From a plasmid: a stretch of 64,000 bases of DNA. A model generated the notes under the pieces. That model did not search any database and was not told where the DNA came from. It saw only the letters and a list, made by a program, of their open reading frames with translations. The translations under genes and the position numbers were made by a program. The stretch lies in the NCBI RefSeq assembly GCF_056746865.1, contig NZ_JBWKMP010000002.1, one strand, 5' to 3'. Below are positions 3,601 to 27,146 of the stretch, piece after piece; positions within the stretch are counted from its first letter, which is position 1; every line of letters begins with the position of its first letter.

Positions 3601-3844
3601 CATTCTCGCCTGAATCCGCGTTCTTGTATTTCTCCACAATGTCCTGAGCACTGGTGGTTGCATTGCGATTTGCGTTAGGATTTGCAAGGTTAAAATTATT
3701 TTCGAGCTGGTCAAATATAGCGTCAGCAGCGTAAACACGTGGTGTCATTACCATGTTTATGAGTGTGACATAAAAAGCCCAACTCATAGTATTGGCAACC
3801 ATTGATGCAATAATCGCTGAGGTGATTGTTTTTCTAAGTTTCAC
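656..3844 (-). CDS. trhN: TraN-family mating-pair stabilisation outer-membrane protein (IncH TrhN type, long form)
   Basis: 1062 aa with an N-terminal signal/TM segment and a very Cys-rich C-terminal two thirds typical of TraN. It is last in the trhP-W-U-N order. The N-terminal ~250 aa is an N/S/G/K-rich extension. Confidence 0.85.
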   Translation of the reverse strand: MKLRKTITSAIIASMVANTMSWAFYVTLINMVMTPRVYAADAIFDQLENNFNLANPNANRNATTSAQDIVEKYKNADSGENVSGKITEKYVGKAESANLNLGKYGAGNSNESVMKNAASDGKSIGSAVQLPSMSGGTINSNYTKEGAKLLSRDANGNIGISSNPNTTPGTKTNTGEIFSSEQKHSDIKFNAADRYGDEDGFVNDIKNRKSQLFDAQSYDGVAYRTLVNANKDNPASSVKPNDPMFTAGRNEITNAVAGTGNWLQNCNVETSKKTITTHYPDYKEFYCNSPKQDNFSSCTITRDFSVPVYISGGNGDMSMCGDNCVRIWFGRRDDNYWSDGVFDNELTLKFHPDAKLASAKIVNAEWDDHMRVTLDGTQIFAHIDGAYRESDYPAPKGSWELKKSWKLDKVYDVTEKVRKSVYEEPDREVTMASRVWVGGGGEGYFEVELTFENMKLEDKHVQEPAGCYDAVQTPNTFCRFDRFKDMDVGTKRLPESVLSMAKPLYEGDKGFLTWKTNLEGYFCDPLAKDKICSYDASGKIMKDANGKDLCYNYEEIKSMPDACSSYKNDAACVLDKQTCAEGWFDEGTNSCYMYEQKYTCDRGKDVVREVESSTNACVGMIPCSGGTCETGPKEENNDFGKVAAYSNMVQYMQGEAKCEDPNDANSCSVFEGKPEWCGRSVGFVNGLAKTDCCEAPQGTAGALEGIMLAGSMIRNTNWTRVNAQLIKWTGGDTGTWASMSNAVGEWTASAGKTVGQMWNNVTSSLTSVYENVAGNLSRAVGSSATSGGAGGAGQLAQETMSSFGIGQLKQMAMKKAYELLPDTVRDFVFKNVATTGGEVVFSAAVQNFMLALNVIGWIYTAYQVTKMLLEMLVACDQKEMEASIHKNQKSCFTLDTERCVKYLNVGFTKKCVKKATDMCCYNSMLSRVIMQQAYPQLGIDPVASNCVGLSIKQIQQLDFDKIDLTEWINDAVQVGEVPDQYSKFSEESIVENLPFQNENYQLPSERTKEAMGGEENMIKARQENAQAIKEENVDCSYLPRPAICEVGSTTLDPVTGKQLPKY

Positions 3845-3862
3845 TTATTTTCTCCTTAGAAA

Positions 3863-4924
3863 TCAAACGCCTGGAACGTAGCGAACACAACAGTCATTGT
3901 AACGCCACAACATATAGACATAATTATCGTTGCCTATTTTTTTGCGCCCACCTTTAAGGGTTGACCAGTCGTGTACCGAATCACCAAGACGATGACAGCA
4001 ATCCGGTCCCTTCGCCTCAGGAGTAGGGAAAAGCATTGAAAGCCGATACTGGGAACGTGGTGTAAAGTATTCCCACGTTTTCTCACACATTGCGTCTGCT
4101 CCCATCGTTCGCATCAGCATGCCTTGGCGATGTAGTTTTGTCAGAAGACGCTGGGTAATCAGTGAACTCGTCCTTACAGCGTCATCATTTGCGTAAATGT
4201 GGCCGGTTAATGGGTAAAGGTTGCCATCGCATCCGGCACAAAAGTATGCAGCGAGATTATCCTTTCCTGCTGTTACTGCTACACAGTCAGCAGCGCACAC
4301 CATTGAGGCAATTGGGTTTGCAAAAACTACTGCCTCGGGATTCAGGACGAGTGTAAGCAGATCACTTTCCCACATAGGGTCCACTTCGCTTATATAGGTC
4401 AGGCTGGCATCTATATAGGGTTCAGCAGTGCACTCGCCAATAATCAGTAATTTGAGCATTGTCATGATTGGGAACTCCCAAAGATGAACATCGTAAAATC
4501 CGGCTTCAGTTGCTGTCATTGGCTGATTAGTGTTGCTTTTACCAATATCAAACTGCGATTTTTGAAGCATCGTGCCTTCAAGAAAGGGGCTGCACCAGGG
4601 GCTCTTTACAACTTCTACAATCTTCACCGGCTGAAAGAAGCTCAATTGCCAACCTATTTCCGGTACGCCGTTCTGATCTGTGCAGTAGCAACCCGGACGT
4701 GAAGGTGCAGCGCCTTCTGGAGCAGCCCCTATGCCCATTATCCTCATGGGAAAAATGCAGCTCCAACAGATATTCTTAATCAAGCCCTGCCACACTCCAG
4801 CTGACTGACACATAGCCCCAGGGACTCCAGCATCTGCTGCCATAGCCATACCAGGTATAGAAAGCGAAAGCATAACTGCTACAATGAACTCTAAAAGTAA
4901 CTTTTTGAATTTTTTCACCATCAT
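3863..4924 (-). CDS. trhU: TraU-family pilus assembly / DNA transfer protein
   Basis: Signal peptide MMVKKFKKLLLEFIVAVMLSLSIPGMAMA and conserved Cys pattern (ICWSCIFPMRIMG). It sits between the traW-like and traN-like genes. I start it at the internal ATG ATG (4924); the track ORF start at 5023 adds 33 unlikely residues. Confidence 0.85.
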   Translation of the reverse strand: MMVKKFKKLLLEFIVAVMLSLSIPGMAMAADAGVPGAMCQSAGVWQGLIKNICWSCIFPMRIMGIGAAPEGAAPSRPGCYCTDQNGVPEIGWQLSFFQPVKIVEVVKSPWCSPFLEGTMLQKSQFDIGKSNTNQPMTATEAGFYDVHLWEFPIMTMLKLLIIGECTAEPYIDASLTYISEVDPMWESDLLTLVLNPEAVVFANPIASMVCAADCVAVTAGKDNLAAYFCAGCDGNLYPLTGHIYANDDAVRTSSLITQRLLTKLHRQGMLMRTMGADAMCEKTWEYFTPRSQYRLSMLFPTPEAKGPDCCHRLGDSVHDWSTLKGGRKKIGNDNYVYMLWRYNDCCVRYVPGV

Positions 4925-5062
4925 GCTCACTTGGATGTAATAAATGTTGCAACACTTTCGATATAGTCGACGGCTTTGGTAAAATAACTTCTCATCTGGT
5001 CCGGATAATTTAGCGTCAGCCATGTTGCAAAGAGAGCGCCTATAATAAATCCGAGTTTCATA

Positions 5063-6586
5063 TTATTTTTCCTCTGAAAGATTTGGGGCTCCGATTCCAC
5101 GGACTTCTGCCTCGCTAAACAGGGTGATCCGGAATTTATCTTGGTCAGTAGTTATAAGCGCAGGTGTATTTTTAATCTGAAAGCGTGAGATAATCTGTTC
5201 GTTTACTTTAAACACCTTACCGTTAAATTTTTCACGTAAATCATTTAGGTGATCCCATCCATTATCTTTTTGGATACGGGTAAACATTGGCATTACTTTT
5301 CCACTACCCAGACGTTGTCGATACTGCTGCTCAGCCCATACCAGCTGGCCCGGATTGAGTGGATCGAAAATTATCATCGTCAGGTTTTGAGGAAATCTCG
5401 AAAGTGGATTAATCAACTCACCGGCGGAAGCTATTACACGGCCCTGCTTATCTTTTACGTCCTGAGTGACCCTCACTGTAGGGTCAATTAAAAATTCTTT
5501 GTGTTCCTGGGCAGGAGGGAGATCGACCATCCATTGATTTTTCCAGGTGTCCGCAACGGCCCTTTTTTTTGCACCTTCCCAGTCATATTTTTGTGCGCGT
5601 TCTTCCAGTTCTTTAATGATGCTCTTTTCTTCAACGGGATAAATCGTACCAGCAACAGGAAAAATGTCCTGATCGGGTTTTTTAGCAAGTTCTCGCTGAA
5701 AAAACTCAACGTTGAAGGACCCTACCATTTTTGCAAAACGAGCTTGCTCCCGAGAAATAATTGTCGGTACTTGAGTTACTTGATACTGACTGAAGCTATC
5801 AGGATCAATTGTAATCAAAGGAGATTCAAATTTTCCTTTGACAATCATTTGGTTTATTGCTGCCTGTGTCTCTGGTAGCCGAGTAGTTCCTTTCTTTAGA
5901 CCATTGAAAACTACACGAGCTTTATGCTCTGAGGCCGTACGTAAAAGGTCTTCCAGTACATAATCCGGTAAGCTAAATGAAGCAAAGATCGTTATACCAT
6001 TTTCAGTTGATAGTGCTTCTTCACGTGTGCTATCCATTTTTCTTTCGAAGTCAGCAGCTGTGATGCCCGAGGAACCAAACAATTTTTCGATATTTTTAGA
6101 TTGTCCTCGCATGACTTCCGGCTTATTTTCCACAGCTTTCAGAGCCGCTTCATTAAGGCTGGCGTTTTCCTGAATTTCATCACGTCTTCTAATTATATCG
6201 TTGACAGCATCAGAGTTATTACTTTGGGCCCTTATAGCCTGGGTATGGTCTATAACTGCTTGAACACTATCCGCATTCATACCGGGCACGTAACCACGGT
6301 TTGTTTGCCTGCTCAGGTCCTGGTTTTTTTTGAGTGCTTCAGCTTGCGCAATGTACTTCTGCACATCTGGTGAATTTAGCGTAGCATCAAGGCTAAGAGC
6401 CCCATCTGGCTGCTGTGCACCTTTAGCCTGAGCGCCAAGCCCTTTTGCTTGCTGAGCGATTAGGTCAGCATCATGTTGATACTCAGTGCTTGCATTTGTA
6501 TTACTTAAAACTGCACATAACGCAAGTCCAGGAAGTATTGGTAAATATTTTTTATTTACATTAAAAGATCGCATATGTTTTCCCAA
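5063..6586 (-). CDS. trhW: TraW/TrbC-like periplasmic pilus assembly protein (IncH TrhW)
   Basis: 507 aa with signal peptide LCAVLSNTNAST. It sits between the peptidase gene and trhU. From memory, IncH TrhW is a TrbC-TraW fusion of about this size. Confidence 0.7.
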   Translation of the reverse strand: MGKHMRSFNVNKKYLPILPGLALCAVLSNTNASTEYQHDADLIAQQAKGLGAQAKGAQQPDGALSLDATLNSPDVQKYIAQAEALKKNQDLSRQTNRGYVPGMNADSVQAVIDHTQAIRAQSNNSDAVNDIIRRRDEIQENASLNEAALKAVENKPEVMRGQSKNIEKLFGSSGITAADFERKMDSTREEALSTENGITIFASFSLPDYVLEDLLRTASEHKARVVFNGLKKGTTRLPETQAAINQMIVKGKFESPLITIDPDSFSQYQVTQVPTIISREQARFAKMVGSFNVEFFQRELAKKPDQDIFPVAGTIYPVEEKSIIKELEERAQKYDWEGAKKRAVADTWKNQWMVDLPPAQEHKEFLIDPTVRVTQDVKDKQGRVIASAGELINPLSRFPQNLTMIIFDPLNPGQLVWAEQQYRQRLGSGKVMPMFTRIQKDNGWDHLNDLREKFNGKVFKVNEQIISRFQIKNTPALITTDQDKFRITLFSEAEVRGIGAPNLSEEK

Positions 6587-7073
6587 TTACTGAATTCAGC
6601 TTTACTGTTCCCCAAAAACGGGAATCCCATGAGTGATCGGTTTGCCCAATTAGGAAAACTTCGCCTTCAGGAATTATCAATTCTTTTTCAATCAAAATGG
6701 ACGGAATACTGTATTTCTTTGAAATACGACGTGCATTAGCTTCAAAAAATTTGTCCCCGTTATAAACCCCATCCATTGTTACTTTGAGTTTGTCACCGCC
6801 CACACCGGCAACAATTTTTATGACTCGTTCATTTTCTGGGATAAAACGAACCGATTTCGGCATGTTGAAAGCTATGAGTTCACCAGTTTTAATAGTTTTA
6901 TCCGAATGATCAATCATATAAAAATCAGCAGGCAGGCACCCATTCAATAAACCGTATCCAAATGTATAACGGGTGAAAAAGACACACATAACGAGAATCA
7001 GCAATAAAATATTAATGGGGACATACCAATCCAGTATAAGCAGCCCTCTCTTTTTAGGTATGTAGTCGCTCAT
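6561..7073 (-). CDS. trhP: S26-family conjugative signal peptidase (RP4 TraF-like pilin maturase, IncH TrhP)
   Basis: 170 aa with one N-terminal TM helix. The C-terminus LIGQTDHSWDSRFWGTV is typical of the LepB/TraF peptidase fold. It overlaps the trhW start by 26 nt. Confidence 0.8.
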   Translation of the reverse strand: MSDYIPKKRGLLILDWYVPINILLLILVMCVFFTRYTFGYGLLNGCLPADFYMIDHSDKTIKTGELIAFNMPKSVRFIPENERVIKIVAGVGGDKLKVTMDGVYNGDKFFEANARRISKKYSIPSILIEKELIIPEGEVFLIGQTDHSWDSRFWGTVKLNSVIGKTYAIF

Positions 7074-7350: not shown

Positions 7351-10300
7351 TTACTCACTGCTTGGTATTGATACAGTGTTTTCAGACTTACTTGCCTCTT
7401 CAGCCGGTCCGAAAACTGTCACGTGCTGCGTTGCAAAGTCTCCACTATCATCATAAGCAATTACTTTTATGTCCTGCTTACCACGGTTAAGGTTTTTAGA
7501 AAGTGTAGCCGTACTACCGAAAACGTTCCTTAATTCGCCGTTGATGAACCATTCATATCTAACCATTTTTCCATCAGTATCATCACATTTATTGGTAAAG
7601 CTCCAGCTTAGGTTGGTTTCCGTGTAGCTCAATGTACAATTAGGCACTGCGTTTTTAACGACATCAAACTCAACAGATGCTGAACCTCTCTGTCCAAGTT
7701 TACTAACAACATCAATTGTGATCTCGTATTTCTTTTCTTTTAAACCCGAAATCAGTTGAGCCCAATAATTTTTGCCGCTGGGTATTACCTCACCGTTCAC
7801 CTTGTATGTGACCGTATCTATCGAGTCCGCCGAATGAGATAGCTTGATGTTTGACCTTAAGGTTACATCGAGTGGAGCTCTCATATATTTGTTAGAGAAC
7901 TTGGGTGTCATCTCAACGTTCATTGGCGTTTGTTCATCGACAACAAAGGTATTTTCGATACGCTGTTCATTGTTGCGGTTATCTTTGAAAACAACCATCA
8001 ATGTATATTTGCCAGGATTTTCAATTGTAAATTCTTTGGTGTCACCTTCATCTTTAGTGATTACCAGATTCTCTTTGTCGTAAATCCATTCTCGGGAATA
8101 AGTAACACCAGGATAGTCTCCATCCTTAATACCGCTCAACGCAACGCGTAGGGTGGTCGGTGCCATGTCGTATTTAAGTTTGGAGCTTATTTTCATTTCG
8201 GGGAATTTATAAACCCACGATTTGACAGAAACTCTACGGGTAGAAACCGTATTCTCCTTATTGTCCGCTAACCATGCACTGTATTCAAAAGCAGCATATC
8301 CCTGTTTATCCAACATTTGCTCAGTAAGGGTAACAGACAGTGTAGAGCCTTTAAATGTCTGGCCATCCGGTGTTTTCCATTCTTCAACTACGTTATTACC
8401 ATTCTGGTACTTACTGTTAGGGTTCGTGAACTTACCTTCCAAAGTAACTTTTTGACCAACCTCTACCTTAGAAACCCCCGTTACCGAGACAGAAAGGCGC
8501 TTGGGTTTTGCGGCTGCCAACCGAGCAGACGTTTCCTTCCATGAAGACTCCTCTGCCAGTTCATCGAAATCAAGGTAACGCATCCGGGCATAAATCGTAG
8601 ACGGTAGGGTATCAGCTGAAGCCACAGTGTAAGTTGTATCTCCCTGCACCCAGTTGACTTTATCCTCTGACCAGAGAACCTCAGCGGTGCCTGCTGGTAT
8701 AGGCTCATCGTTATCAAGCAGGGTTACAGGTACATCTGAGCCCTGAAGAATGTCTGTCACATCTATACTGAGCTTAGGCTGCTTGTAGGTAACTACCGTT
8801 AAGGCATCTGTGTAGGAAACCTTAGATGTGAATTTATTGGTCATTTTTGCCCTATAAAGCCACTTTCCTACTTCTGTCTTTTTGATACTTACACTTCTCT
8901 TTCCGGTCATGTCGGAAAGCATATTCCAGGTTTGACCATTATCAGAGGACTGCTGCCATTCGGTGGGGGCAAGTGCGTCAGAGTTAGCAGTACTGGCAGA
9001 TTTGAAGCTTACCAGAGTACTAAGTGGGATCCTTCCGATAATAAGGCTTTTCGACAGGTTACCCTCCAGTTCCTCACCTTTATAGATTCGAATGCCTACA
9101 GCACTGGTCTCACGTTTCATTTCAAAATCAGAGAATGGCGATCTGACCTTAGCCACACCAACCAGACGCATATTACCCAGATCCATATTTTCAATTTTAA
9201 TCTTGGTTTCGACAATGCCCGCATCATTGACCGGCAATGCTTCAGTCAGCGCAGTTCTTTCGTATGTAGTTTTATAACGGCCTGTTTCTGGATCTTTGCC
9301 GTATACACTTTTTTGCGAGTATATCGTGACGTCCCATTCTCCCATTGTTTTACGGTCAAATGCACTTTTACGTGTGGAGTTGTTATAACGCCCCACTGTT
9401 ACCTTTAAGGGCACTTCAAGAGATGTGGCTGTTTTTCTGTCATCCACTTCCATCGATGCTCGAATATTGAAATCAGGCACCGTATATACGTTGAGTGTGT
9501 CTGTAGTTCTTAATTCTGGATCCTTTGAGTATTCTACAGCTATGTCAAAGACGTTCTTTGTCCACAATGGTGCAGCAGCAACCTTAACCCTTTGTACAAA
9601 GGTCGTTGCATCGTTGTTTGAGGAACGATTTTTAAATGACGTTTTGACAGCCTCAGAGCCGTTTTGAGAGACGATCATCGTAACGTCAGCTGGTACCACC
9701 TTCGCTAATATTCGAGCGGCCTCCCCCCCGGTCGTATAAGCCAGAGCAGTGTTCGGATTGATGCCAGCTATGACTTTATTCTTTTTGTAAGAGATGATCG
9801 GGTTGTATGGTAATTGTGTGGTCAGAGTACGGCGATTCCTTGCGGATACCGCTTTAGAGCCCTTCCCGTTAATCATATAGACTTGATAGTCGAGCAGATT
9901 CTCACCTGTTTTATTAAAGAATCCAGTTAGACCCGGGGTACGTCCTTTAAAATAGAACTCCAACCCATCAGGGACATTGTTCCACTGAGGGTAGCATGCT
10001 GTAACATCTGATTTTTCCCCATACCAGGCGAGGTAAGCATTCGCATTTTCCTCTGTGGTAAACAGAGTGCATTTATCACCAGCTGTTTGACTAAGCAGGT
10101 CCGTATACTGACGTACACGCGAGTAAAGAGTTACGTTTTTTTCCAGATTCTTGAGAGTGAATCCAGTAGGTTGATAAGTGAAAACGGTACTGAAATTAAC
10201 GTTTTTTCCATAAAGGTTTTCAGCCACCACAGTAATCTCGTGATCCGAATTAACTGCTAAATCGTCTCCAACCGGCAGGTAGTAAATACCTCTATAATTT

Positions 10301-18404: not shown

Positions 18405-19409
18405 TTATTCTGATACTTTTAATTTTTCTTTTATGAACTCCTCTAGCTCCTTAATAAAACCCGCACTTATCCTATTGAATTCAATGCGAATTTTTCTTCC
18501 AGTATTGTTTTTACTGATTCTTGCATACTTATCTTTGTTATCAAAAGTAATAAGATCACTTGTTTCCCATTTTGTGGAATAAGATTTTTCACAAACACTT
18601 TCCACAGATTGTGTGATTTTCTCCATTACAACTTTTTGGGCAACTTGGAAGATCTCCAATGTCTAAATCTTTTGTTTCCTCTTTAACATTATCTATTACT
18701 TCATCTAAAGGAAATAGATTTTTTTGCACATATTTCTGTAAACGAGACAAGCGACTATAATAGGAGTTCGGTATTCCTTCATAATCCGGGAATAAAGAGA
18801 TCAATGTTTCGTCAATACGTGCCGCCTGGATTCTTTTGGCTACCGATACATGACTAATCCCAAGATATGCTGCGAGTTCTTCATTAGTAGAAAATCCCTT
18901 TTCTTCCATTTTCTTGATAAATTGAAACCCAACTTCTCTATATGAAAATTTTCGAGATGTTTGTGCTGCGGATATAATTGAATTTATATCATCTTCGGTT
19001 AGTTCATCCGGTAGTACCCACAGGGGAGATCCTTTTCTGCCTTTATACAGCAGAAACGTCTGCGACTTCCTTCTATTAATAAATAAACCCCATCTCTTTT
19101 TACAGCGATCCCTTCGGTATCGACCCCTCTTTCTTCAATCTGCTTAAGAATATCTCTAACAGAATAATCTGTAAGGGCTTCTTGATTTCGTGGGTTTGCT
19201 GGATGGACTAAGGTCTCCTTCTCCACTCTCTGGGCTGGAACAATCACATGTTCCGCTTCAAGTCTTCGGCCCTTATGAAGAGTGAATAACTTTTTTATGC
19301 GAGGTGCTGTTTTCAAACCCGCAAGACCTGAACGGTGACCGACTTCTGTCCGCTTTGGTGCGTTTAAATATCGAGATTTATCATTCCCGATATGTTGCTC
19401 ATCGCTCAT
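18405..19409 (-). pseudogene. parB: Type Ia ParB (P1 ParB/SopB-like) centromere-binding protein, interrupted by two 1-nt frameshifts
   Basis: Three consecutive ORFs (18999..19409, 18589..18909, 18405..18659) together read as a ~335-aa ParB. The GSRRR motif is followed by a frame change at CCCC (~19030), and a second change lies at A5 (~18626). Confidence 0.7.
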
Positions 19410-20659
19410 GCGTTAACTCCTTGCTTAGCTGAAAAACTTTTTATTTCATTTATAAATTGTTGATATACCTGTAATACAGATTCTTCTGCGACATCAAGTT
19501 GCTTTGCGGAACAAAGTTCCTCTGATTTTTTGATATCAAGCACTGTACGCCCTTTGGAAGCAGCTGCCTTAAATGCTTCAGAATTTTTTATGTTAGCGGA
19601 CATCAAAAGGTCCTGAACAGTTCTGATTAATTTATCCAAAACTATTCTTTCATATGGACTTTTGTCATCAACATTGACAGCAAGAACTTTGAACCATTTT
19701 AAATTATCGCCCTTACTTGGTGATTGTTTAAACCTTTCACTTATTGTAAGCATGAAGTCTGTAGTAGAGGCGTAATCATATTCACGTGGTGACACTGCGA
19801 CAAGAATCCCATCGGCCGCTTCGTCAGCAGCCCAGATCAAAGGTGAATCTTCAGGTGGAGTGTCTATAATAATCAAATCATAGTTCTGCTTCAGTACCGG
19901 TAAGATAACTTCCTTGAAACGTAGTAACAAAGACGTTCGTTCTTCTCTAGAACATTGCCAGTATTTATCTTTAAAACGAGCATCTGTCGGAAATGCCGTT
20001 ATCACGTCCAAGTTTGGCAGATGCGTTGAAAAAGGCATATTAGTGATGATTTCTTCTTCAGAGAATCCTGAATCTAAATATTTTTTATACTCAGAATTTT
20101 CTTCATAAATTCCAAGGATTGCATCAATTGCTGTAAGGAAGACATCATCTTCTGAGACACTTTGAATCATGCTGCTTCCAATCGAACCTTGTGGGTCCCA
20201 TTCGATCATTAATACACGTGCATTCAGTTGTAGATCTAAAGCAGCTGCTACTGCTAAAGCTACAGATGTAGTGCTTTTCCCTGTACCGCCTTTATGATTC
20301 TGAGTAACAATAGCTCTGCTAAAGTAATGATCGCGGTACTTGGGATAACCCAGGGCATCCATTATTTTTTGAACATCCCAGCGGGTGTAAAGATGATTTT
20401 TGTTTTGATAAATAGGTGCACCAACAACTTCTTTTTCTTCTAAGTCCGAAAGTATTTTATTGAACGTTACTCGTGACTTCCCAAAAAAATCAGAGAGATT
20501 TTTTTTATTTAAACAGTGGTTGTAGATCAGTCTATCAACACCATCAACACTATCATCAGAAACAGATACTCTTGATGAAGCCATCAGAGATTCCTTAAGA
20601 GAAATCTGCTCGCTTTTCATGCGCTGACCAACGAGGGCGATCTTTTCAAGTAAATTCAT
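19406..20659 (-). CDS. parA: Type Ia ParA partition ATPase with N-terminal DNA-binding extension
   Basis: 417 aa with the deviant Walker A KGGTGKSTTS. It has a ~110-aa N-terminal extension as in P1 ParA/SopA and an ATGA overlap with parB. Confidence 0.85.
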   Translation of the reverse strand: MNLLEKIALVGQRMKSEQISLKESLMASSRVSVSDDSVDGVDRLIYNHCLNKKNLSDFFGKSRVTFNKILSDLEEKEVVGAPIYQNKNHLYTRWDVQKIMDALGYPKYRDHYFSRAIVTQNHKGGTGKSTTSVALAVAAALDLQLNARVLMIEWDPQGSIGSSMIQSVSEDDVFLTAIDAILGIYEENSEYKKYLDSGFSEEEIITNMPFSTHLPNLDVITAFPTDARFKDKYWQCSREERTSLLLRFKEVILPVLKQNYDLIIIDTPPEDSPLIWAADEAADGILVAVSPREYDYASTTDFMLTISERFKQSPSKGDNLKWFKVLAVNVDDKSPYERIVLDKLIRTVQDLLMSANIKNSEAFKAAASKGRTVLDIKKSEELCSAKQLDVAEESVLQVYQQFINEIKSFSAKQGVNA

Positions 20660-20690
20660 GGTTATGACCTTTTTGCACTGAAAACCGACT

Positions 20691-20725
20691 TTTACGCATA
20701 TATGTAAACTTTACGCATAATGCGT
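20691..20725. promoter_or_regulatory. Candidate parA operator (parOP-like repeats)
   Basis: TTTACGCATA occurs twice (20691-20700 and 20710-19), and the second copy is part of the perfect palindrome ACGCAT-A-ATGCGT. The region lies 30-65 bp upstream of the parA ATG. Type Ia ParA proteins autoregulate at such repeats. Confidence 0.5.
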
Positions 20726-21054
20726 CCATTTCATTGTTATACGTACAATTCTATCCTTTGTTTCAATCCTAAGCTAATGTTTGTTTACTTTTTTATGATT
20801 TTTTGTGAGCTTAACTTGCAGATGAGAGCTCAGACTCTCTAGTCCTTAATGCTCATTCTTTTTAAACCACGATTCTTGTCGACTTCTCTACGCTTTGACG
20901 TTATGAGCTCCATTAATGAATCTTAGCCTACCCTATTTCTTGCTTAAGAATTTAATTCTTCTCTCACCGGTGTGCTGATTTAAGTTTTCCTAACTGTGAA
21001 TCGTTGTCGTCAGTCCAGTCTAAAGATATGAGGTGTCATTTTCTTTGAGTAGGC

Positions 21055-24047
21055 CCACTACGAATTATGGGAGCAAAGTTAGCGACCTAGCCCAGAACTG
21101 AAACCCAACTTCAGGAGGCAACCCCAGTGTGGCGATTGGAGTTAATCTGCCAGCGGCTGACAGTGTCCTGGCTCCTTTCTCCGTGGCCCACCACGCCCTG
21201 ATTAAAATCCCCTGCCCGGTATTGTATGGAGCGAAAAAAGCCCGTGCATTTGTGTCGGCAGACCGGCATGAAGGAATATGACGTTAATCTGTATCAGCAG
21301 GCACTTTTCGCATGATGGGAGCAAGTGATAGCAACCCCGCCCAGAACGGAAGGCCAGCATCAGGACAAAACCCAAGTTTGGCGATTAAGGGGGTTAAATT
21401 TGCAAGCGGATGACAGTGCCCCAGCTGCTGCTCAGTCACACCACGCCCTGAGTAAATCTCTCGCCAGGTCTTGTTATGACCGAAAATAGCCCAAGCACTG
21501 GTGTCGGCAGACCGGCATACAGGAATATGACGTTAATCTGTATCAGCAGATACATTTCGCATTATGGGAGCAAGAGATAGCAACCCAGCCCAGAACTGAA
21601 GGCCAGCATGAGGACAGAACACCAGTTTGGCGATTAAGGGAGTTAAATATGCAAGCTGCTGATAGTGCCCCAGCTCCTGCTCAGTAACACCACGCCCTGA
21701 TAAAATCTCCTGCCCGGTAATGTAATGACCGAAAAAAGGCCGTGCACTGGTGTCGGCAGACCGGCACGCAGGAAAATGACGTTAATCTGTATTAACAGAC
21801 ACATTTCGCATTAGGGGAGCAAGTGATAGCCACCCAGCCCAGAACTGAAGGCCAGCATCAGGACAGTACCCCAGTTTGGCGATTAAGGGGGTTAAATCCG
21901 CCAGTGGCTGTAAGTGCCCGAGCGGTGTATAAGAAATATTTCCCGAAGGACAATCTTTCGCTCGTACGATGAATAAAGTGTTCAACCCGGGAGCGGGGAT
22001 CACTTACCTGCTTAGCCTAAATCTTACGTCATTCTTAAACGGAGTTTAAGCTTAATGGTCCTTAGAAAGTTAAAAGGACTACCCATAATGACGTCTTGAG
22101 ATGGCGAATAAAGGGTTTTAATCTGCCAGCGGCTCAACAGTGCCCCAGCTTCTGCTCAGTCACACCACGCCTGATTAAATCTCCCGCCAGGTCTTATTAT
22201 GACCGAAAATAGTCCCCGTGCACTAGAGTCGTAAGACCGGCATACAGGAATGAAGCTTAAATCTTTATCAGGTTGCAAGGTTCGCATCATGGGAGCAAGG
22301 GCCTTGAACTGTAGGTTAACATCAGAAAATCCCAGATTGGCGATTAAGGGGGTTAAATCTGACAGCGACTGAAAGTGCCTTCAGATGCTGCTCAGGTATA
22401 TTACAACCTGAAAAAATCAAGCGTCTGTTCATGCGAATATCGAAAAAAGCTATGCACCAGTTTCGGCAGACCGGCATGGAGTAATGAGACGTTAATCTGT
22501 ATCAGCTGGCGCATTTCGTATCATGGGAGCAAGTGTTAGCAACCCTGCCCAGGACGGAAGGACACTATCAGGACTGATCCCAGTTTGGAGATTAAGGGGG
22601 TTAAATCTGCCAGTGGCTGACAGAGCCTTCTGAGTCAGACATACTATGAACGATAAAATCACCCGTCCGTCCTTGTGATTATCGGAAAAAGCCATGCCCA
22701 GTCGGCAGATCGGTATGCAGTAATGTGACTTTAATCTGTATCAGCAGGCGCAATGGGAGCAAGTGTTAGCAACCGAGCCCAGGACGGAAGGACACTATCA
22801 GGACTGAACCCCAGTGTGGCGATTAAGGGGGTTAAATCTGCAAGCGGATAACAGTGCCCCAGCTGCTGCTCAGTCACACCACGCCCTGATTAAATCTCTC
22901 GCCAGGTCTTGTTAGGACCGAAAATAGCCCGAGCACTGGTGTCGGCAGACCGGCATACAGGAATACGACGTTAATTTGTATCAGCAGGTACATTTCGCAT
23001 TATGGGAGCAAGTGATAGCAACCCAGCTCAGAACTGAAGGCCTGCATGAGGACAGAACACCAGTTTGGCGATTAAGGGGGTTAAATCTGACAGCGGCTGA
23101 CAGTGCCTTCAGATGCTGCTCAGGCATACTACTCTCCCTGATATAATCTCCCATATGTTCTTGAGATTCGCCCATGCACCGGTGTCGGCAGACCGGTATG
23201 CAGTAATGTGATTTTAATCTGTATCAGCAGGCACATTTCGTATCATGGGAGTAAGTGTTAGCAAACCGAACCCCGCCCAGCACGGAAGGTCAATATCAGA
23301 CCAGAATCCCAGTTTGGCGATTAAGGGGGTTAAATCTGCAAGCTGCTGACAGTGCCCCAGCTTCTGCTCAGTCACACCACGCCCTGATAAAATCTCCTGC
23401 CCGGTAATGTGATGACCGAAAAAAGCCCGTGCACTGGTGTTGGCAGACCGGCACGCAGGAATATGACGTTAATCTGTATCAGCAGTTACATTTCGCATTA
23501 TGGGAGGAAGTGATAGCCACCCAGCCCAGAACTGAAGGCCAGCATCAGGACAGTACCCCAGTTTGGCGATTAAGGGGGTTAAATCCGGCAGCGGCAGTAA
23601 GTGCCCGTGCTGTGTTAAAGGAATATTTCCCTAAGGACAATCTTCCGATCGGCCTTTTGTATAAAGTGGTCACCCCGGGAGCGGGGATCACTTTACCTGC
23701 TTAGCCTAAATCTTACGTCAATCACTATCCGGAATTTTAGCTTAATGGTCCTGAGCAAGTTAAAAGGGGTACCCCTAATGACGTCCCCAGATGGCGATAA
23801 AGGAGTTAATTCCGCCTTCGGCTTACAGTGCCGCAGCTGCTGCTAAGGAACACCACGCCCTGATTAAATCTCCCGCCTGGCCTTGTGATGACCAAAAATT
23901 GTCCGTGCACTGGCGTCGTAAGACCGGCATACAGGAATGAGGCGTTAATCTTTATTAGGTGGAAGGATTCGCATCATGGGAGCAAGGGCCCTAGAACTGT
24001 AGGCTAACATTAGAAAATCACAGATTGGCGATAAAGGGGGTTAAATA
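21055..24047. repeat. Non-coding tandem array: 13 units of ~249 bp arranged as a 1.69-kb higher-order repeat
   Basis: The core GGCGATTAAGGGGGTTAAATCTGC recurs at 21131, 21380, 21629, 21878, 22103, 22339, 22587, 22818, 23067, 23316, 23565, 23793 and 24027. Copy n and copy n+7 are 1687-1690 bp apart. No conserved ORF. Confidence 0.9.
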
Positions 24048-24413
24048 AGTTAAAAGTCTTCGGTGAGCAAATTGGATAAATTTTCATAAACCAAAGCGTT
24101 AATATTAAACTTTTAGAAGAATGATTAAAGGATATTAAGTTTTGTATGCAATATGACACCAGTGATCTGTTTTCACTAATAATGCCGCGCTCCTTTGATT
24201 ACCTTTGGTAAACAAAAATGTAATTTACGTGAATTTCATCTTATAAAGTCAGTATTGATGTTATAAATTTTGTTTACTTAATGCGTACACAACCTAAATG
24301 CGATTTGTAATTATGTCACTGTTTTTAAGCCATATTAATTATAAAACCAAAATTTGCAGCACAGTGATGAACTCATTAAGTCATAACCTCATTTGTTTAC
24401 TTAAGGCATACAA

Positions 24414-24445
24414 TAAAAAACCAGATTCTTATGAGACATCTGGTT
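24414..24445 (-). terminator. Rho-independent terminator after trhC
   Basis: Stem ACCAGAT / ATCTGGT (24420-24426 and 24438-24444) with an 11-nt loop. On the minus strand it is followed by a T run (A6 at 24415-24420). It lies 30 nt after the trhC stop. Confidence 0.6.
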
Positions 24446-24473
24446 TAATTGTTTTTGCTTGAAGATATTTACT

Positions 24474-27146
24474 CTACGCGGCCAAACCCGCTGCTACTTC
24501 TTGAGCATAGAGAATTTCTATTGCCTCGCCATAGCTACAATTCTCGCGGCTTTGAATTTCCCATAATTTACTCCTGTCAGCACTATCCGTAGTAAAACAA
24601 AGCTCCATTTTCCGGTCTACGTATAACCGACAGATCTCGTAAGTTTCGAACCTGACTAACATCTCTGAAAACACCTTTTTGACTGTACGAATATTTTTCA
24701 TTCGTTCATATTCTGCATCTGAAGTAGAAAAATATTTATTAGCCTTCATTGCTTCAATGCTTTCTTTTTCTTGTTTCATGATTATCTTCCAAGGCGAGTT
24801 AGCAGTCAGGGCCCGGCCAACAGAAGAAGTAAAATAATCTTCAAACGACTGTGTGATACAGATGCCAGCGCAGTTTGTTTTCCTGAACCTACGCCATGCC
24901 GCTTCGAGGAAGGAAGAGAAGAATTGGTTTGATTGATTTCCGGCACCTGATGAATTATCAGGACGAATGTACTCCCAAGCTTCATCTAGGATGAACAAGC
25001 GACGACGCCCATCTTTTTTGATGAACATTGCATGCTGAGCAGCCTGAATGATAGACATTAAAACAACTGTCTGAAGGTGGGGGGTGCCTTTTAGCTCCTC
25101 CAGTTCCAAAACAATAAATCTGCTGTCTATTGGAGGCAACGTATCGGTAAACCGGTGCCCATAAATTCCACCTTCGCACCATGCTCCGAGTTGCTCCCCA
25201 ATATCCTTTATACGTTTGTCTTCATGCTTCTTGCAACGCAGAGCAAAGCCGGTTATTGAACCGGTCCGACCTGATTTTCTGGATTCCTGGTACTCTTCTG
25301 CAATAAGCTGAAGCATCACTGATTGTTGATAATCATCGATAAGGCCTTTCTCTGAAGCCATAATTTTTAGCTGATTCAGAACCATTATGGTCTGAGCAAC
25401 TTTGTCTTTTTCTGCATCGTTTGAAGTTGATTCACCGGTAAATTCAGGTGCTTCGTTAAATACATCGTCGTTAACAGTGATGTCAGTTAGGAAGGCAAAG
25501 GGATTTAGGGTGAAGTCAGGGGTTTTACCGAAATCAATAAATTGACTGTTTGTATATTGTTCCGCAATCCCCTGGTAAGAACGCCCCACGTCCACTACAA
25601 AAACTTGAGCACCATCAGGATCATCATCTGGGTATTCGTTTTCTAAAAAATGCTTAAATGTTGAGCGATAATGAACGAGGTTATTAGATCGCGGTCCAGC
25701 TCCAAGATAGTTATTGATTAGATATGCTGTCCAGAATGACTTGCCTGCACCTGACGTTGCACCAATAACCATGTTATAGCTTGCAGAAGTCTTGAAAATA
25801 TCAAGTCCCATGAGTTGACCTTCACGAGAAACTAAACTCAGTACTGGTCTATCTGTATTACCTTTCCAGGGCCCAAAGATCGGCGTCATATGAGCCGCTC
25901 CGGTGTTGCTCACTACTTCGGATCGGTCAAGGTCGAAAATTGTCTTTGGGTCATTGCACATTGGCAGACATGACATAAATGACGGGAAAACGATAAAGGA
26001 ATCATCTGCTACTTTGACCCGGCTTTCGAGGTAAAAGGATTTGAGATCGTTAGCTGCTGTCTGCACAGAATTGGCATTACTACCCATAACAGTGAAAGTA
26101 AGATACCCTCTTAAAAGCTTTGCGCCATCCTCAAGCTCGCGAGTTACGGCCATGTAGTCATTATCCATATCCCGCAGGCGAGGGCAGAATGTGACAACTG
26201 AAGGTATACTTGCCTGTTTATTAGTGATTGCTTTGTAGCGGACGTTTTCTTTTGACAACTTGAGCGGATCGGCAAACTGAACAGTCTGAGTGATCATAAA
26301 TGGGCTGAAAATTGTCTTACGTCCATGCATCCAGTTAACTACTAACTCATACATACAACCGAAATTGACGTATTCAGGAAACTTTACAACGGAAAGTTGT
26401 TTGAAGTAACGATGCTCAGATTCGTCGTCACTTTGTGTGACTGATGAGAAATGATTTTCTGTGACTGTATACTTACGGCCGGGAACGTTAACTTGTTCAT
26501 TAAGCCTTTTCATAGTGTTAACGTCTATAAAACCTTCAGCCCACCGAGAGTTCTTTCCGGGGTTTACGACCTTATCTATACAATAGAGCCAGTTTTCTGC
26601 ATCGACCTTAAACGGATGCAGTCCAATCGTAATTAACTTACTTACAAGTTCAGAGTAAAGTGAATCGATACGCGAATGTTCCAGCTCGGTAGGAAGGGCA
26701 GACTGTAAAGGAATCGATAGCGAGATCCATACCTGAAAATCCCTCAACATAAGGTTATCATGATCAGGTTTTAAAGGCTTATGCATACTTCTGTCGTAGT
26801 AGTCCAACTGATAACCATTAAGCAGATCTGCTTTAAGCTTATCGTTCCCAGTCATACGCCCACCTCGCACAGCTGACCAAGCACTAAGCTGTAAAGTCAA
26901 GTCTGGCAATGCAGTCAGAGATATTTGACAGACAGTATCTGTAGGAAAATCCATTTTGAACATTTCAGCAAGAACATCTTGCTGATTATCAAAAACTCCA
27001 GGTGATGGATTACAGATAAACATAAACCCTAATCTGTTGCCATCAATCAAAAAATAGTGAGTCCCTGCTAATTGATCGTAAACAGGGATAAACCCACCTA
27101 ATTGATGGCGATTTAAACCGCTATTGTAATTATTGATAGCTTCCAT
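24474..27146 (-). CDS. trhC: TraC/VirB4-family type IV secretion ATPase
   Basis: 890 aa with Walker A GATSGAGKS and a Walker B-like RLFILDEAW. Position after traV fits. Confidence 0.9.
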   Translation of the reverse strand: MEAINNYNSGLNRHQLGGFIPVYDQLAGTHYFLIDGNRLGFMFICNPSPGVFDNQQDVLAEMFKMDFPTDTVCQISLTALPDLTLQLSAWSAVRGGRMTGNDKLKADLLNGYQLDYYDRSMHKPLKPDHDNLMLRDFQVWISLSIPLQSALPTELEHSRIDSLYSELVSKLITIGLHPFKVDAENWLYCIDKVVNPGKNSRWAEGFIDVNTMKRLNEQVNVPGRKYTVTENHFSSVTQSDDESEHRYFKQLSVVKFPEYVNFGCMYELVVNWMHGRKTIFSPFMITQTVQFADPLKLSKENVRYKAITNKQASIPSVVTFCPRLRDMDNDYMAVTRELEDGAKLLRGYLTFTVMGSNANSVQTAANDLKSFYLESRVKVADDSFIVFPSFMSCLPMCNDPKTIFDLDRSEVVSNTGAAHMTPIFGPWKGNTDRPVLSLVSREGQLMGLDIFKTSASYNMVIGATSGAGKSFWTAYLINNYLGAGPRSNNLVHYRSTFKHFLENEYPDDDPDGAQVFVVDVGRSYQGIAEQYTNSQFIDFGKTPDFTLNPFAFLTDITVNDDVFNEAPEFTGESTSNDAEKDKVAQTIMVLNQLKIMASEKGLIDDYQQSVMLQLIAEEYQESRKSGRTGSITGFALRCKKHEDKRIKDIGEQLGAWCEGGIYGHRFTDTLPPIDSRFIVLELEELKGTPHLQTVVLMSIIQAAQHAMFIKKDGRRRLFILDEAWEYIRPDNSSGAGNQSNQFFSSFLEAAWRRFRKTNCAGICITQSFEDYFTSSVGRALTANSPWKIIMKQEKESIEAMKANKYFSTSDAEYERMKNIRTVKKVFSEMLVRFETYEICRLYVDRKMELCFTTDSADRSKLWEIQSRENCSYGEAIEILYAQEVAAGLAA

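Follow-up and report, generated by a model that had tools for sequence, protein, structure and literature searches.

The DNA analyzed in this work is a 64-kb stretch of contig NZ_JBWKMP010000002.1, hereafter the window, which belongs to the backbone of a conjugative IncHI2 plasmid of the R478 type. The window contains the Par1 partition locus encoding ParA and ParB, and a tandem array of approximately 3 kb located upstream of parA, which was assessed as a candidate centromere. The locus comprises parB (positions 18405..19409), parA (19406..20659), the leader and promoter region of parA (20660..20997), the array (20998..24046), a unique spacer devoid of homology to the repeat units (24047..24473), and the trhC open reading frame (ORF; 24474-27146), all assigned to the minus strand. 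The GC content is 49.5% for the array, 35% for the parA-side flank, and 29% for the trhC-side flank. An earlier note on this DNA, made from the sequence alone, had the array filling the whole gap between trhC and parA. This is not the case, since AT-rich unique DNA flanks the array over ~340 bp on the parA promoter side and ~425 bp on the trhC side. In the annotated plasmid pD90-1, the array interval is a 3.8-kb stretch without any feature, and the neighboring genes are annotated as encoding ParA, ParB, a TraC-family protein (trhC), trhV, and htdT.

Tandem Repeats Finder (TRF) detected one tandem array at positions 21064-23606, with a period of 249 bp, 10.4 copies, and 68% matches. A search with a profile of the unit (nhmmer) widened the limits of the array to 20998-24046 and detected no further unit copies elsewhere in the window. 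Anchoring of the conserved core of the units on the motif TGG[CA]GA located 13 core starts, at positions 21130, 21379, 21628, 21877, 22102, 22338, 22586, 22817, 23066, 23315, 23564, 23792, and 24026. The resulting spacings (249, 249, 249, 225, 236, 248, 231, 249, 249, 249, 228, and 234 bp) reproduced exactly those reported in the earlier note, as did the number of cores and the period of 249 bp. Combining TRF, the unit profile, the anchors, the identity matrix, and the alignment of the units, we divided the array into 10 standard units of ~249 bp, 2 units whose body is unrelated to that of the standard ones, and a partial parA-proximal unit. Each unit harbors a single core and the orientation of all cores is uniform relative to parA, which is encoded by the minus strand. 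The array therefore consists, as in sopC, of head-to-tail direct repeats with one putative site each. Nine cores matched a 24-mer with at most 3 mismatches (chance expectation of 0). The cores of units 1, 5, 12, and 13 (starts 21130, 22102, 23792, and 24026) are degenerate. The parA-proximal core (21130-21150), which reads TGGCGATTGGAGTTAATCTGC in the window, is perfect in pD90-1 and in other IncHI2 plasmids. Alignment of the units also showed that the other conserved blocks previously noticed in each unit are real and that, as stated before, the small ORFs are not conserved, none being common to the units.

Two units contain a variant body, at positions 21902..22101 (unit 4) and 23589..23791 (unit 11), to which no strand was assigned. 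The two bodies are paralogues (84% identity over 197 bp) without detectable homology to the standard spacer, the comparison of the unit 4 body with the standard unit giving an nhmmer E value of 0.09. In the identity matrix, unit 4 was 85% identical to unit 11 and 49-59% identical to the other units. Variant bodies are confined to IncHI2 plasmids, which usually harbor two of them.

The array had been proposed to be built of a 7-unit super-repeat reminiscent of eukaryotic higher-order satellites. The offsets of 1687-1690 bp between units n and n+7 on which this proposal was based were recovered, but the super-repeat itself was not. At this offset, identities were 82% (units 1 and 8), 76% (2 and 9), 94% (3 and 10), 85% (4 and 11), and 84% (5 and 12), and unit 2 was 96% identical to unit 8, at an offset of 6 units. 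The order of unit subtypes along the array is A A A D C B B A B A D C (B), D designating the units with a variant body. Only a block of ~4 units, A-D-C-B, is duplicated (units 3-6 and 10-13). The two places at which variant segments had been noticed were correctly identified, but variant units occur once per duplicated block rather than twice per super-repeat. The distance separating D units was 729, 1205, 1454, 1703, or 1717 bp depending on the IncHI2 plasmid, and one plasmid harbored a single D unit. Because this distance varies across IncHI2 plasmids and only one block is duplicated, no super-period is maintained. The structure is one segmental duplication inside an array of variable copy number, the outcome to be expected from unequal recombination in any tandem array. 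The span of the array in nine other IncHI2-type loci ranged from 1.6 to 3.3 kb, corresponding to roughly 7-14 units. The shortest array, found in an Atlantibacter hermannii contig (positions 2792-4410 of the locus, 1.6 kb, ~7 units), contains one variant-body unit and represents either the state preceding the duplication of the block or the product of a deletion that removed DNA between its two copies. Higher-order periods are also present in related loci (334 bp, or 5 x 67, in IncHI5 plasmids and 162 bp, or 3 x 54, in the IncHI1 plasmid R27).

The array is not specific to the window. The region spanning positions 20660-24473 was matched by 1,129 plasmids of PLSDB, mostly typed as IncHI2A and originating from Escherichia, Salmonella, and Enterobacter, and a single match covered at least 80% of this query in 561 of them. 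The body of the standard unit occurred 11,169 times in 1,128 plasmids, i.e. ~10 copies per plasmid. Among complete E. coli genomes, 275 of 5,426 (5%) contained the array. An assembly artefact is excluded because the array recurs across plasmids. Matches to the array were also found in E. coli chromosomes (38 matches), and IncHI2-type parAB genes together with the array were found on an Enterobacter hormaechei B17-3 record labelled as a chromosome, which suggests that the chromosomal matches are integrated IncHI2 plasmids. The array of the window was at most 98.5% identical to the closest database record. Comparison with pD90-1 gave 61 differences, 39 of which are located between 20800 and 21300. 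In a divergent IncHI2 record, NZ_PP376100, the locus is truncated and rearranged, and was uninformative for comparison.

The core is 20-21 bp in length and reads ATTTAACCCCCTTAATCGCCA in the orientation of parA. In a perfect copy, located at positions 22817..22837 on the minus strand and proposed to be a ParB site, the arms ATTTAA and TTAAT surround CCCCC and are overlapped by TCGCCA. In every well-preserved core, TCGCCA overlaps the right one of the two arms, ATTTAAC and CTTAAT. The core is the most conserved 21-bp segment of the unit, with 2.06 bits per column versus 1.3-1.8 elsewhere. Within the window, the core motif was confined to the array (10 matches versus 0.15 expected), and no copy was found outside of it in the 64 kb, including downstream of parB.

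The same core was found in association with other parAB operons. The closest relative is Par1 of R27, which occupies the same position in the Tra2 region, between trhC and parA, and encodes ParA and ParB proteins that are 89% and 71% identical to those of IncHI2 plasmids, respectively. A comparison by blastn revealed that only the cores and a stretch of ~100 bp of the parA promoter are common to the window, R27, and pCFR-eb27. The sole non-core stretch shared with these two plasmids is located at positions 20694-20802 (74-75% identity). A profile of the R27 unit likewise matched only cores in the window. The 21-bp core of R27 is identical to that of the IncHI2 array and has the same orientation upstream of parA, every R27 unit containing ATTTAACCCCCTTAATCGCCAG, the reverse complement of the core sequence given in the earlier note. 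The two arrays differ in their format, since the ~24-30 units of R27 are 52-54 bp long and form two blocks, whereas the 7-14 units of IncHI2 plasmids are ~249 bp long. The R27 blocks, of ~7 and ~23 units, are split by ~0.6-0.7 kb of unique DNA (positions 4880-5480 of the locus), an insert that is absent from IncHI2 plasmids.

A census of related loci, based on a scan of genome contigs with a profile built from 6 sequences, extended this observation. The consensus TTTAACCCCCTTAATCGCCA (20 bp) was invariant in ten parAB lineages whose ParB proteins are 65-100% identical, although the ten bases on each side differ. It was always arrayed, on the same strand as parA and 200-500 bp ahead of this gene, in units of 43, 52-56, or 249 bp. 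In addition to IncHI2 (ParB identity of 99-100%, ~249-bp units) and R27, these arrays comprise 10 x 54 bp in pCFR-eb27, Pantoea, and Pseudocitrobacter (ParB identity of 74%), 5-7 x 56 bp in pCFA1707-1, Kluyvera, and Serratia (71-72%), 4-5 x 55 bp in Lelliottia, Phytobacter, and Scandinavium (69-70%), and 10 x 43 bp in Buttiauxella (65%), all upstream of parA. The ten 43-bp units of the latter lineage, located at positions 4077-4463 of the locus in an uncultured Buttiauxella contig, have the length of the F sopC unit and the same 20-bp core. Thus, the unit length of 249 bp, which had been considered unusual, is found only in IncHI2 plasmids, versus 43-56 bp in the other lineages with the same core. 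Neither the other ~228 bp of the unit nor the variant bodies had a homologue outside IncHI2 arrays among 72,556 plasmids, or anywhere else in the window. The possibility that the 249-bp unit comprises five degenerate sub-repeats of ~50 bp was rejected at the sensitivity of the R27-unit profile (nhmmer), which detected only cores. The array travels with parAB rather than with trhC, as the genes located upstream in pCFA1707-1 and in the IncHI5 plasmid p11219-IMP are unrelated to trhC.

More distant relatives harbor a co-varied version of the core, AAAACAACCCCCTTGTTCGCCA, which is either arrayed or present as single sites that flank parAB. The core type AAAACAACCCCCTTGTTCGC(CA/AG) is shared by the IncHI5, Providencia, and Xenorhabdus relatives. 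In IncHI5-type plasmids (ParA and ParB identities of 64% and 47%), the core is AAAACAACCCCCTTGTTCGCAG, and an array of 42 x 67-bp units precedes parA while a second one, of 14-15 units, follows parB. In p11219-IMP, these arrays occupy positions 3766-6600 and 9315-10277 of the locus, respectively, and would together form a putative centromere of ~3.8 kb. The array preceding parA displays a five-unit higher-order period of 334 bp at 90% identity. The Providencia and Xenorhabdus relatives (ParB identity of 53-54%) do not contain any array. In these, AAAACAACCCCCTTGTTCGCCA occurs exactly twice, once ahead of parA and once past parB. A Vibrio relative (ParA identity of 49%) contains AAAAAAAGGGGGGTTTTTCCCC(A/G)CAA at two flanking positions, its core type being AAAAAGGGGGGTTTTTCCCCA. 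In the single-site relatives, one site is located ~130-140 bp upstream of parA and the other ~65-170 bp downstream of parB. Across these loci, the arms vary (TTAA/TTAA, ACAA/TTGT, and AAAAA/TTTTT) but are always inverted around a run of C or G and followed by a TCGCCA-like hexamer.

The predicted recognition helix of ParB varies in parallel with the arms. It reads GISHVSV[ASF]KR in the first class of plasmids, in which the consensus is invariant, ISVESVRKR or ISTESVRKR in the second class, VSIVTIRKK in the Vibrio relative, and LSQAKVTRA in P1. The C-terminal block of the protein, KDxYAR...GRK...EFNR, is kept throughout the ParB alignment, as is the hexamer. This co-variation between the core and the recognition helix is the strongest computational argument for a ParB protein that would read the core.

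The proteins encoded by the locus belong to the type Ia partition family. ParA is a large Walker ATPase (417 residues) with the N-terminal extension, ahead of the ATPase domain, that characterizes this type. It matched the Pfam families AAA_31 and CbiA from residue 115, could be aligned to P1 ParA starting at residue 62 (25% identity, E=3e-17), and was 100% identical to the IncHI2 ParA of more than 1,100 plasmids. ParB is a homologue of P1 ParB whose gene is interrupted in the window by two 1-bp indels in homopolymers, GGGG versus GGGGG near position 19027 and GGAAGA versus GGAGA near position 18650. The gene is otherwise identical to that of pD90-1 and the second indel restores the frame. The indels may be long-read sequencing errors or the mark of a recent pseudogene. 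Comparisons were made with the intact ParB of pD90-1, which displayed 28% identity with P1 ParB over 306 residues (E=4e-31) and kept the GSRRR arginine patch. It matched the P1 ParB(142-333) chains crystallized on parS (PDB 1ZX4 and 2NTZ, E~4e-16) and the Pfam family PF08775. Among solved structures, P1 ParB, which is the nearest relative, and VirB were matched at E<=0.01 but SopB was not. With its arginine patch, helix-turn-helix (HTH) domain, and C-terminal dimerization and DNA-binding domain, and with its gene directly downstream of parA, ParB has the features of a type Ia protein.

Comparison with the centromere of P1 provides a tentative assignment of the elements of the core. The genome record of P1 annotates in parS the box B TCGCCA, the box A heptamers ATTTCAC and ATTTCAA, and a site for the integration host factor (IHF). 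The right arm or small site of parS, ATTTCAAGGTGAAATCGCCA, contains A2, an inverted A3, and B2 overlapping A3. In the IncHI core ATTTAACCCCCTTAATCGCCA, the elements are laid out as in A2-A3-B2, with two inverted arms and TCGCCA overlapping the right one. The core has ATTT.A on its left side and AATCGCCA on its right side in common with the P1 site. The assignment of TCGCCA as a counterpart of the P1 box B made in the earlier note was thus well founded, the hexamer being located within the invariant core and overlapping the inverted repeat. In contrast, the ATTTCGC proposed as box A is part of the spacer, which is specific to IncHI2, and IncHI1 units lack it. The core arms ATTTAAC and CTTAAT would be better analogues. 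They resemble the P1 heptamers without being identical to them. The homology of ParB to P1 ParB extends from end to end and covers both the HTH domain and the C-terminal domain that binds box B in P1. The two systems also differ. P1 harbors one composite site downstream of parB, bent by IHF at a central position, whereas in the IncHI2 locus 13 putative sites in tandem precede parA. The core also differs from the P1 site in its arms and its central spacer (CCCCC), and the assignment of boxes is by analogy. A per-unit IHF site as in P1 was considered and rejected, since the array contains one consensus match.

The resemblance to sopC of plasmid F concerns the general organization. sopC is composed of 12 tandem 43-bp repeats, over a total length of about 0.5 kb, and is also an array of direct repeats with one binding site per unit in a type Ia system, and relatives of the IncHI2 locus have units of 43-56 bp. 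However, sopC is located downstream of sopB, whereas the IncHI2 array is upstream of parA, with a unit and a total length (3 kb) that are each ~6 times longer. Neither the short 43-bp unit downstream of the B gene nor a protein of the SopB family was found in the IncHI2 locus. The IncHI5/IncHI3-type locus, for example that of p11219-IMP, resembles the IncHI2 locus by its homologous parAB genes and its very large arrays, but differs by its core specificity, its second array downstream of parB, and its other flanking genes. This locus is already written 'parABC' in one report (PMC6339943).

In the parA leader, the direct repeat TTTACGCATA is present at positions 20691 and 20710 and the palindrome ACGCATAATGCGT at positions 20713-20725. 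These sequences, which belong to the sole promoter segment conserved in R27 (20694-20802), are candidates for a ParA operator. On the trhC side of the array, a hairpin (CCAGAT-N11-ATCTGG) followed by a T-run is located directly past the stop codon of trhC (~24421-24450, minus strand) and is likely the terminator of this gene. It was read from the sequence, as its loop of more than 8 nucleotides was missed by the terminator scan.

Because the core alone is conserved across lineages, the array is linked to parAB, and the core co-varies with the recognition helix of ParB, we propose that the array is probably the cis-acting centromere of the IncHI2 Par1 system, i.e. an array of parS sites, and a determinant of partition incompatibility. 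These observations, drawn from sequence comparisons, support the multi-site centromere of a type Ia ParAB module envisaged in the earlier note. Each unit would provide one putative ParB site of 20-21 bp, ATTTAACCCCCTTAATCGCCA, for the loading and binding of a dimer of a P1-type ParB. By analogy with P1, the HTH domains of ParB would read the two inverted arms, as counterparts of the A boxes, and its C-terminal dimer domain would read the overlapping TCGCCA (box B). The ~9-13 competent sites distributed over 3 kb would gather many ParB molecules in a single large partition complex, to be positioned by nucleoid-bound ParA. By titrating ParB, the array would also cause strong partition incompatibility, and it might reinforce the autoregulation or the silencing of the parA promoter located ~300 bp away. 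The remaining ~228 bp of the unit would most likely be passenger DNA, co-amplified with one site and homogenized by unequal recombination. Incompatibility is expected with IncHI1 plasmids because the core and the recognition helix are identical there. It would probably extend to the other plasmids of the first class, but not to those of the IncHI5 type.

Several observations weigh against this proposal. No recurring IHF consensus was found in the units, a single match being present in the whole array. The sites are located upstream of parA, unlike those of P1 and F. In comparison to pD90-1, the two indels in parB split the gene of the window into three ORFs. Within IncHI2 plasmids, spacer blocks are nearly as conserved as the core, and the comparison of two IncHI2 lineages did not reveal any difference between the core and the spacer (3/273 versus 41/2770 differences, p=0.79), although these lineages are 98.5% identical, leaving little discriminating power. 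Finally, the two variant units (4 and 11) are of similar length (225-228 bp) in spite of bodies unrelated to those of the standard units, which could hint at a constraint on spacing.

The latter observations raise the possibility that the whole 249-bp unit is functional, the spacer containing auxiliary sites, such as the half-sites AGATTAACG and GAGATTT[TA]ATCAGG, which resemble an A box, or sites for a nucleoid protein of the host or of the plasmid. The length of the unit would then be under selection, each unit forming a defined nucleoprotein particle. In addition to the similar length of the variant units, the spacer blocks CTGATACAGATTAACGTC, ATGCCGGTCTGCCGAC, and GGGCACTGTCAGCCG are kept among unit subtypes that are only ~75% identical overall, two of these blocks contain ATTAAC or ATTTAAT, resembling the core arms, and the 249-bp format is stable in ~1,130 plasmids. 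However, nine sister lineages with an identical core and ParB proteins that are 65-74% identical have units of 43-56 bp devoid of these blocks, and the spacer has no homologue outside IncHI2. Conservation within the array is expected from concerted evolution alone, and neither a recurring IHF consensus nor hidden sub-repeats detectable with the R27-unit profile were present. We therefore regard a role of the whole unit as unlikely. The same low probability applies to its most elaborate form, in which the unit would be a selected module, a ParB particle, perhaps with a host factor, assembled on the core and the spacer half-sites into a phased, chromatin-like centromere. If so, selection would have favored this format in very large plasmids (200-400 kb), or as a means of discriminating against co-resident IncHI1 plasmids with the same core.

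A second alternative is that the array is mainly regulatory, silencing, or insulating, ParB spreading from the units to tune the parA promoter or to block read-through from trhC, and that the centromere is located elsewhere. The array indeed follows trhC directly and precedes the parA promoter by ~300 bp. In P1, ParB silences genes flanking parS, and parS in cis strengthens repression of the par operon. However, no alternative centromere is visible, since the 64-kb window does not contain any other copy of the core. In the single-site relatives, the motif is present on both sides of the operon, an arrangement that is no less compatible with a centromere than with an operator. Moreover, a regulatory role would not preclude a role as centromere. 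The silencing or spreading platform considered in the earlier note is thus compatible with an array of parS sites as a secondary effect, but a replacement of the centromere by such a platform appears very improbable. The least plausible alternative, an array of repeated structured RNAs, small peptides, or iterons for replication control, is hardly credible in spite of the length, conservation, and lack of annotation of this non-coding DNA and the presence of small ORFs: structured RNAs, also raised previously, were rejected in the absence of any Rfam match at E<=1, of a fold better than that of shuffled sequences (z = +0.12 and +0.89 for the two strands), and of enrichment in promoter-like sites (4 versus 7.3 expected) or terminator-like sites (4 versus 4.5 expected); the ORFs are short, differ in strand and frame, and none is common to the units, whose lengths differ by non-multiples of three; and there is no adjacent rep gene, the array moving with parAB.

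A centromere of this type, as predicted here, is known in kind, since tandem centromere arrays such as sopC have been described and Par1 of R27 is a functional partition system, as cited in two reports (PMC4489591, PMC13245405). Literature searches on the IncHI2 or IncHI1 centromere, parS, and tandem repeats did not retrieve any description of the array, the key primary papers on R27 being outside the searchable text. A partial description of the array has likely been made previously. Direct repeats upstream of parA in R27 were reportedly noted in earlier work on this plasmid. In the searchable literature, we did not find the identity of the site, the iteration of a P1-like composite layout upstream of parA, the series of single sites, 43-67-bp units, and 249-bp units, or the 249-bp format specific to IncHI2.

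IncHI2 plasmids are major carriers of mcr-1, mcr-9, and genes encoding extended-spectrum β-lactamases and carbapenemases. Despite its presence in ~1,130 plasmids of PLSDB and 5% of complete E. coli genomes, the array is unannotated. Narrowing the likely centromere to a 20-bp site provides a concrete target for binding work, for plasmid-curing and incompatibility strategies, and for annotation. IncHI1, IncHI2, and several unclassified enterobacterial plasmids are predicted to share one partition specificity, and IncHI5-type plasmids to have another, which would predict the plasmid groups that show mutual partition incompatibility. P1-type partition is normally studied with one site. The series extending from single sites to arrays of 43-67-bp units and to arrays of 249-bp units would offer a natural test of the impact of the number and spacing of sites on ParB loading.

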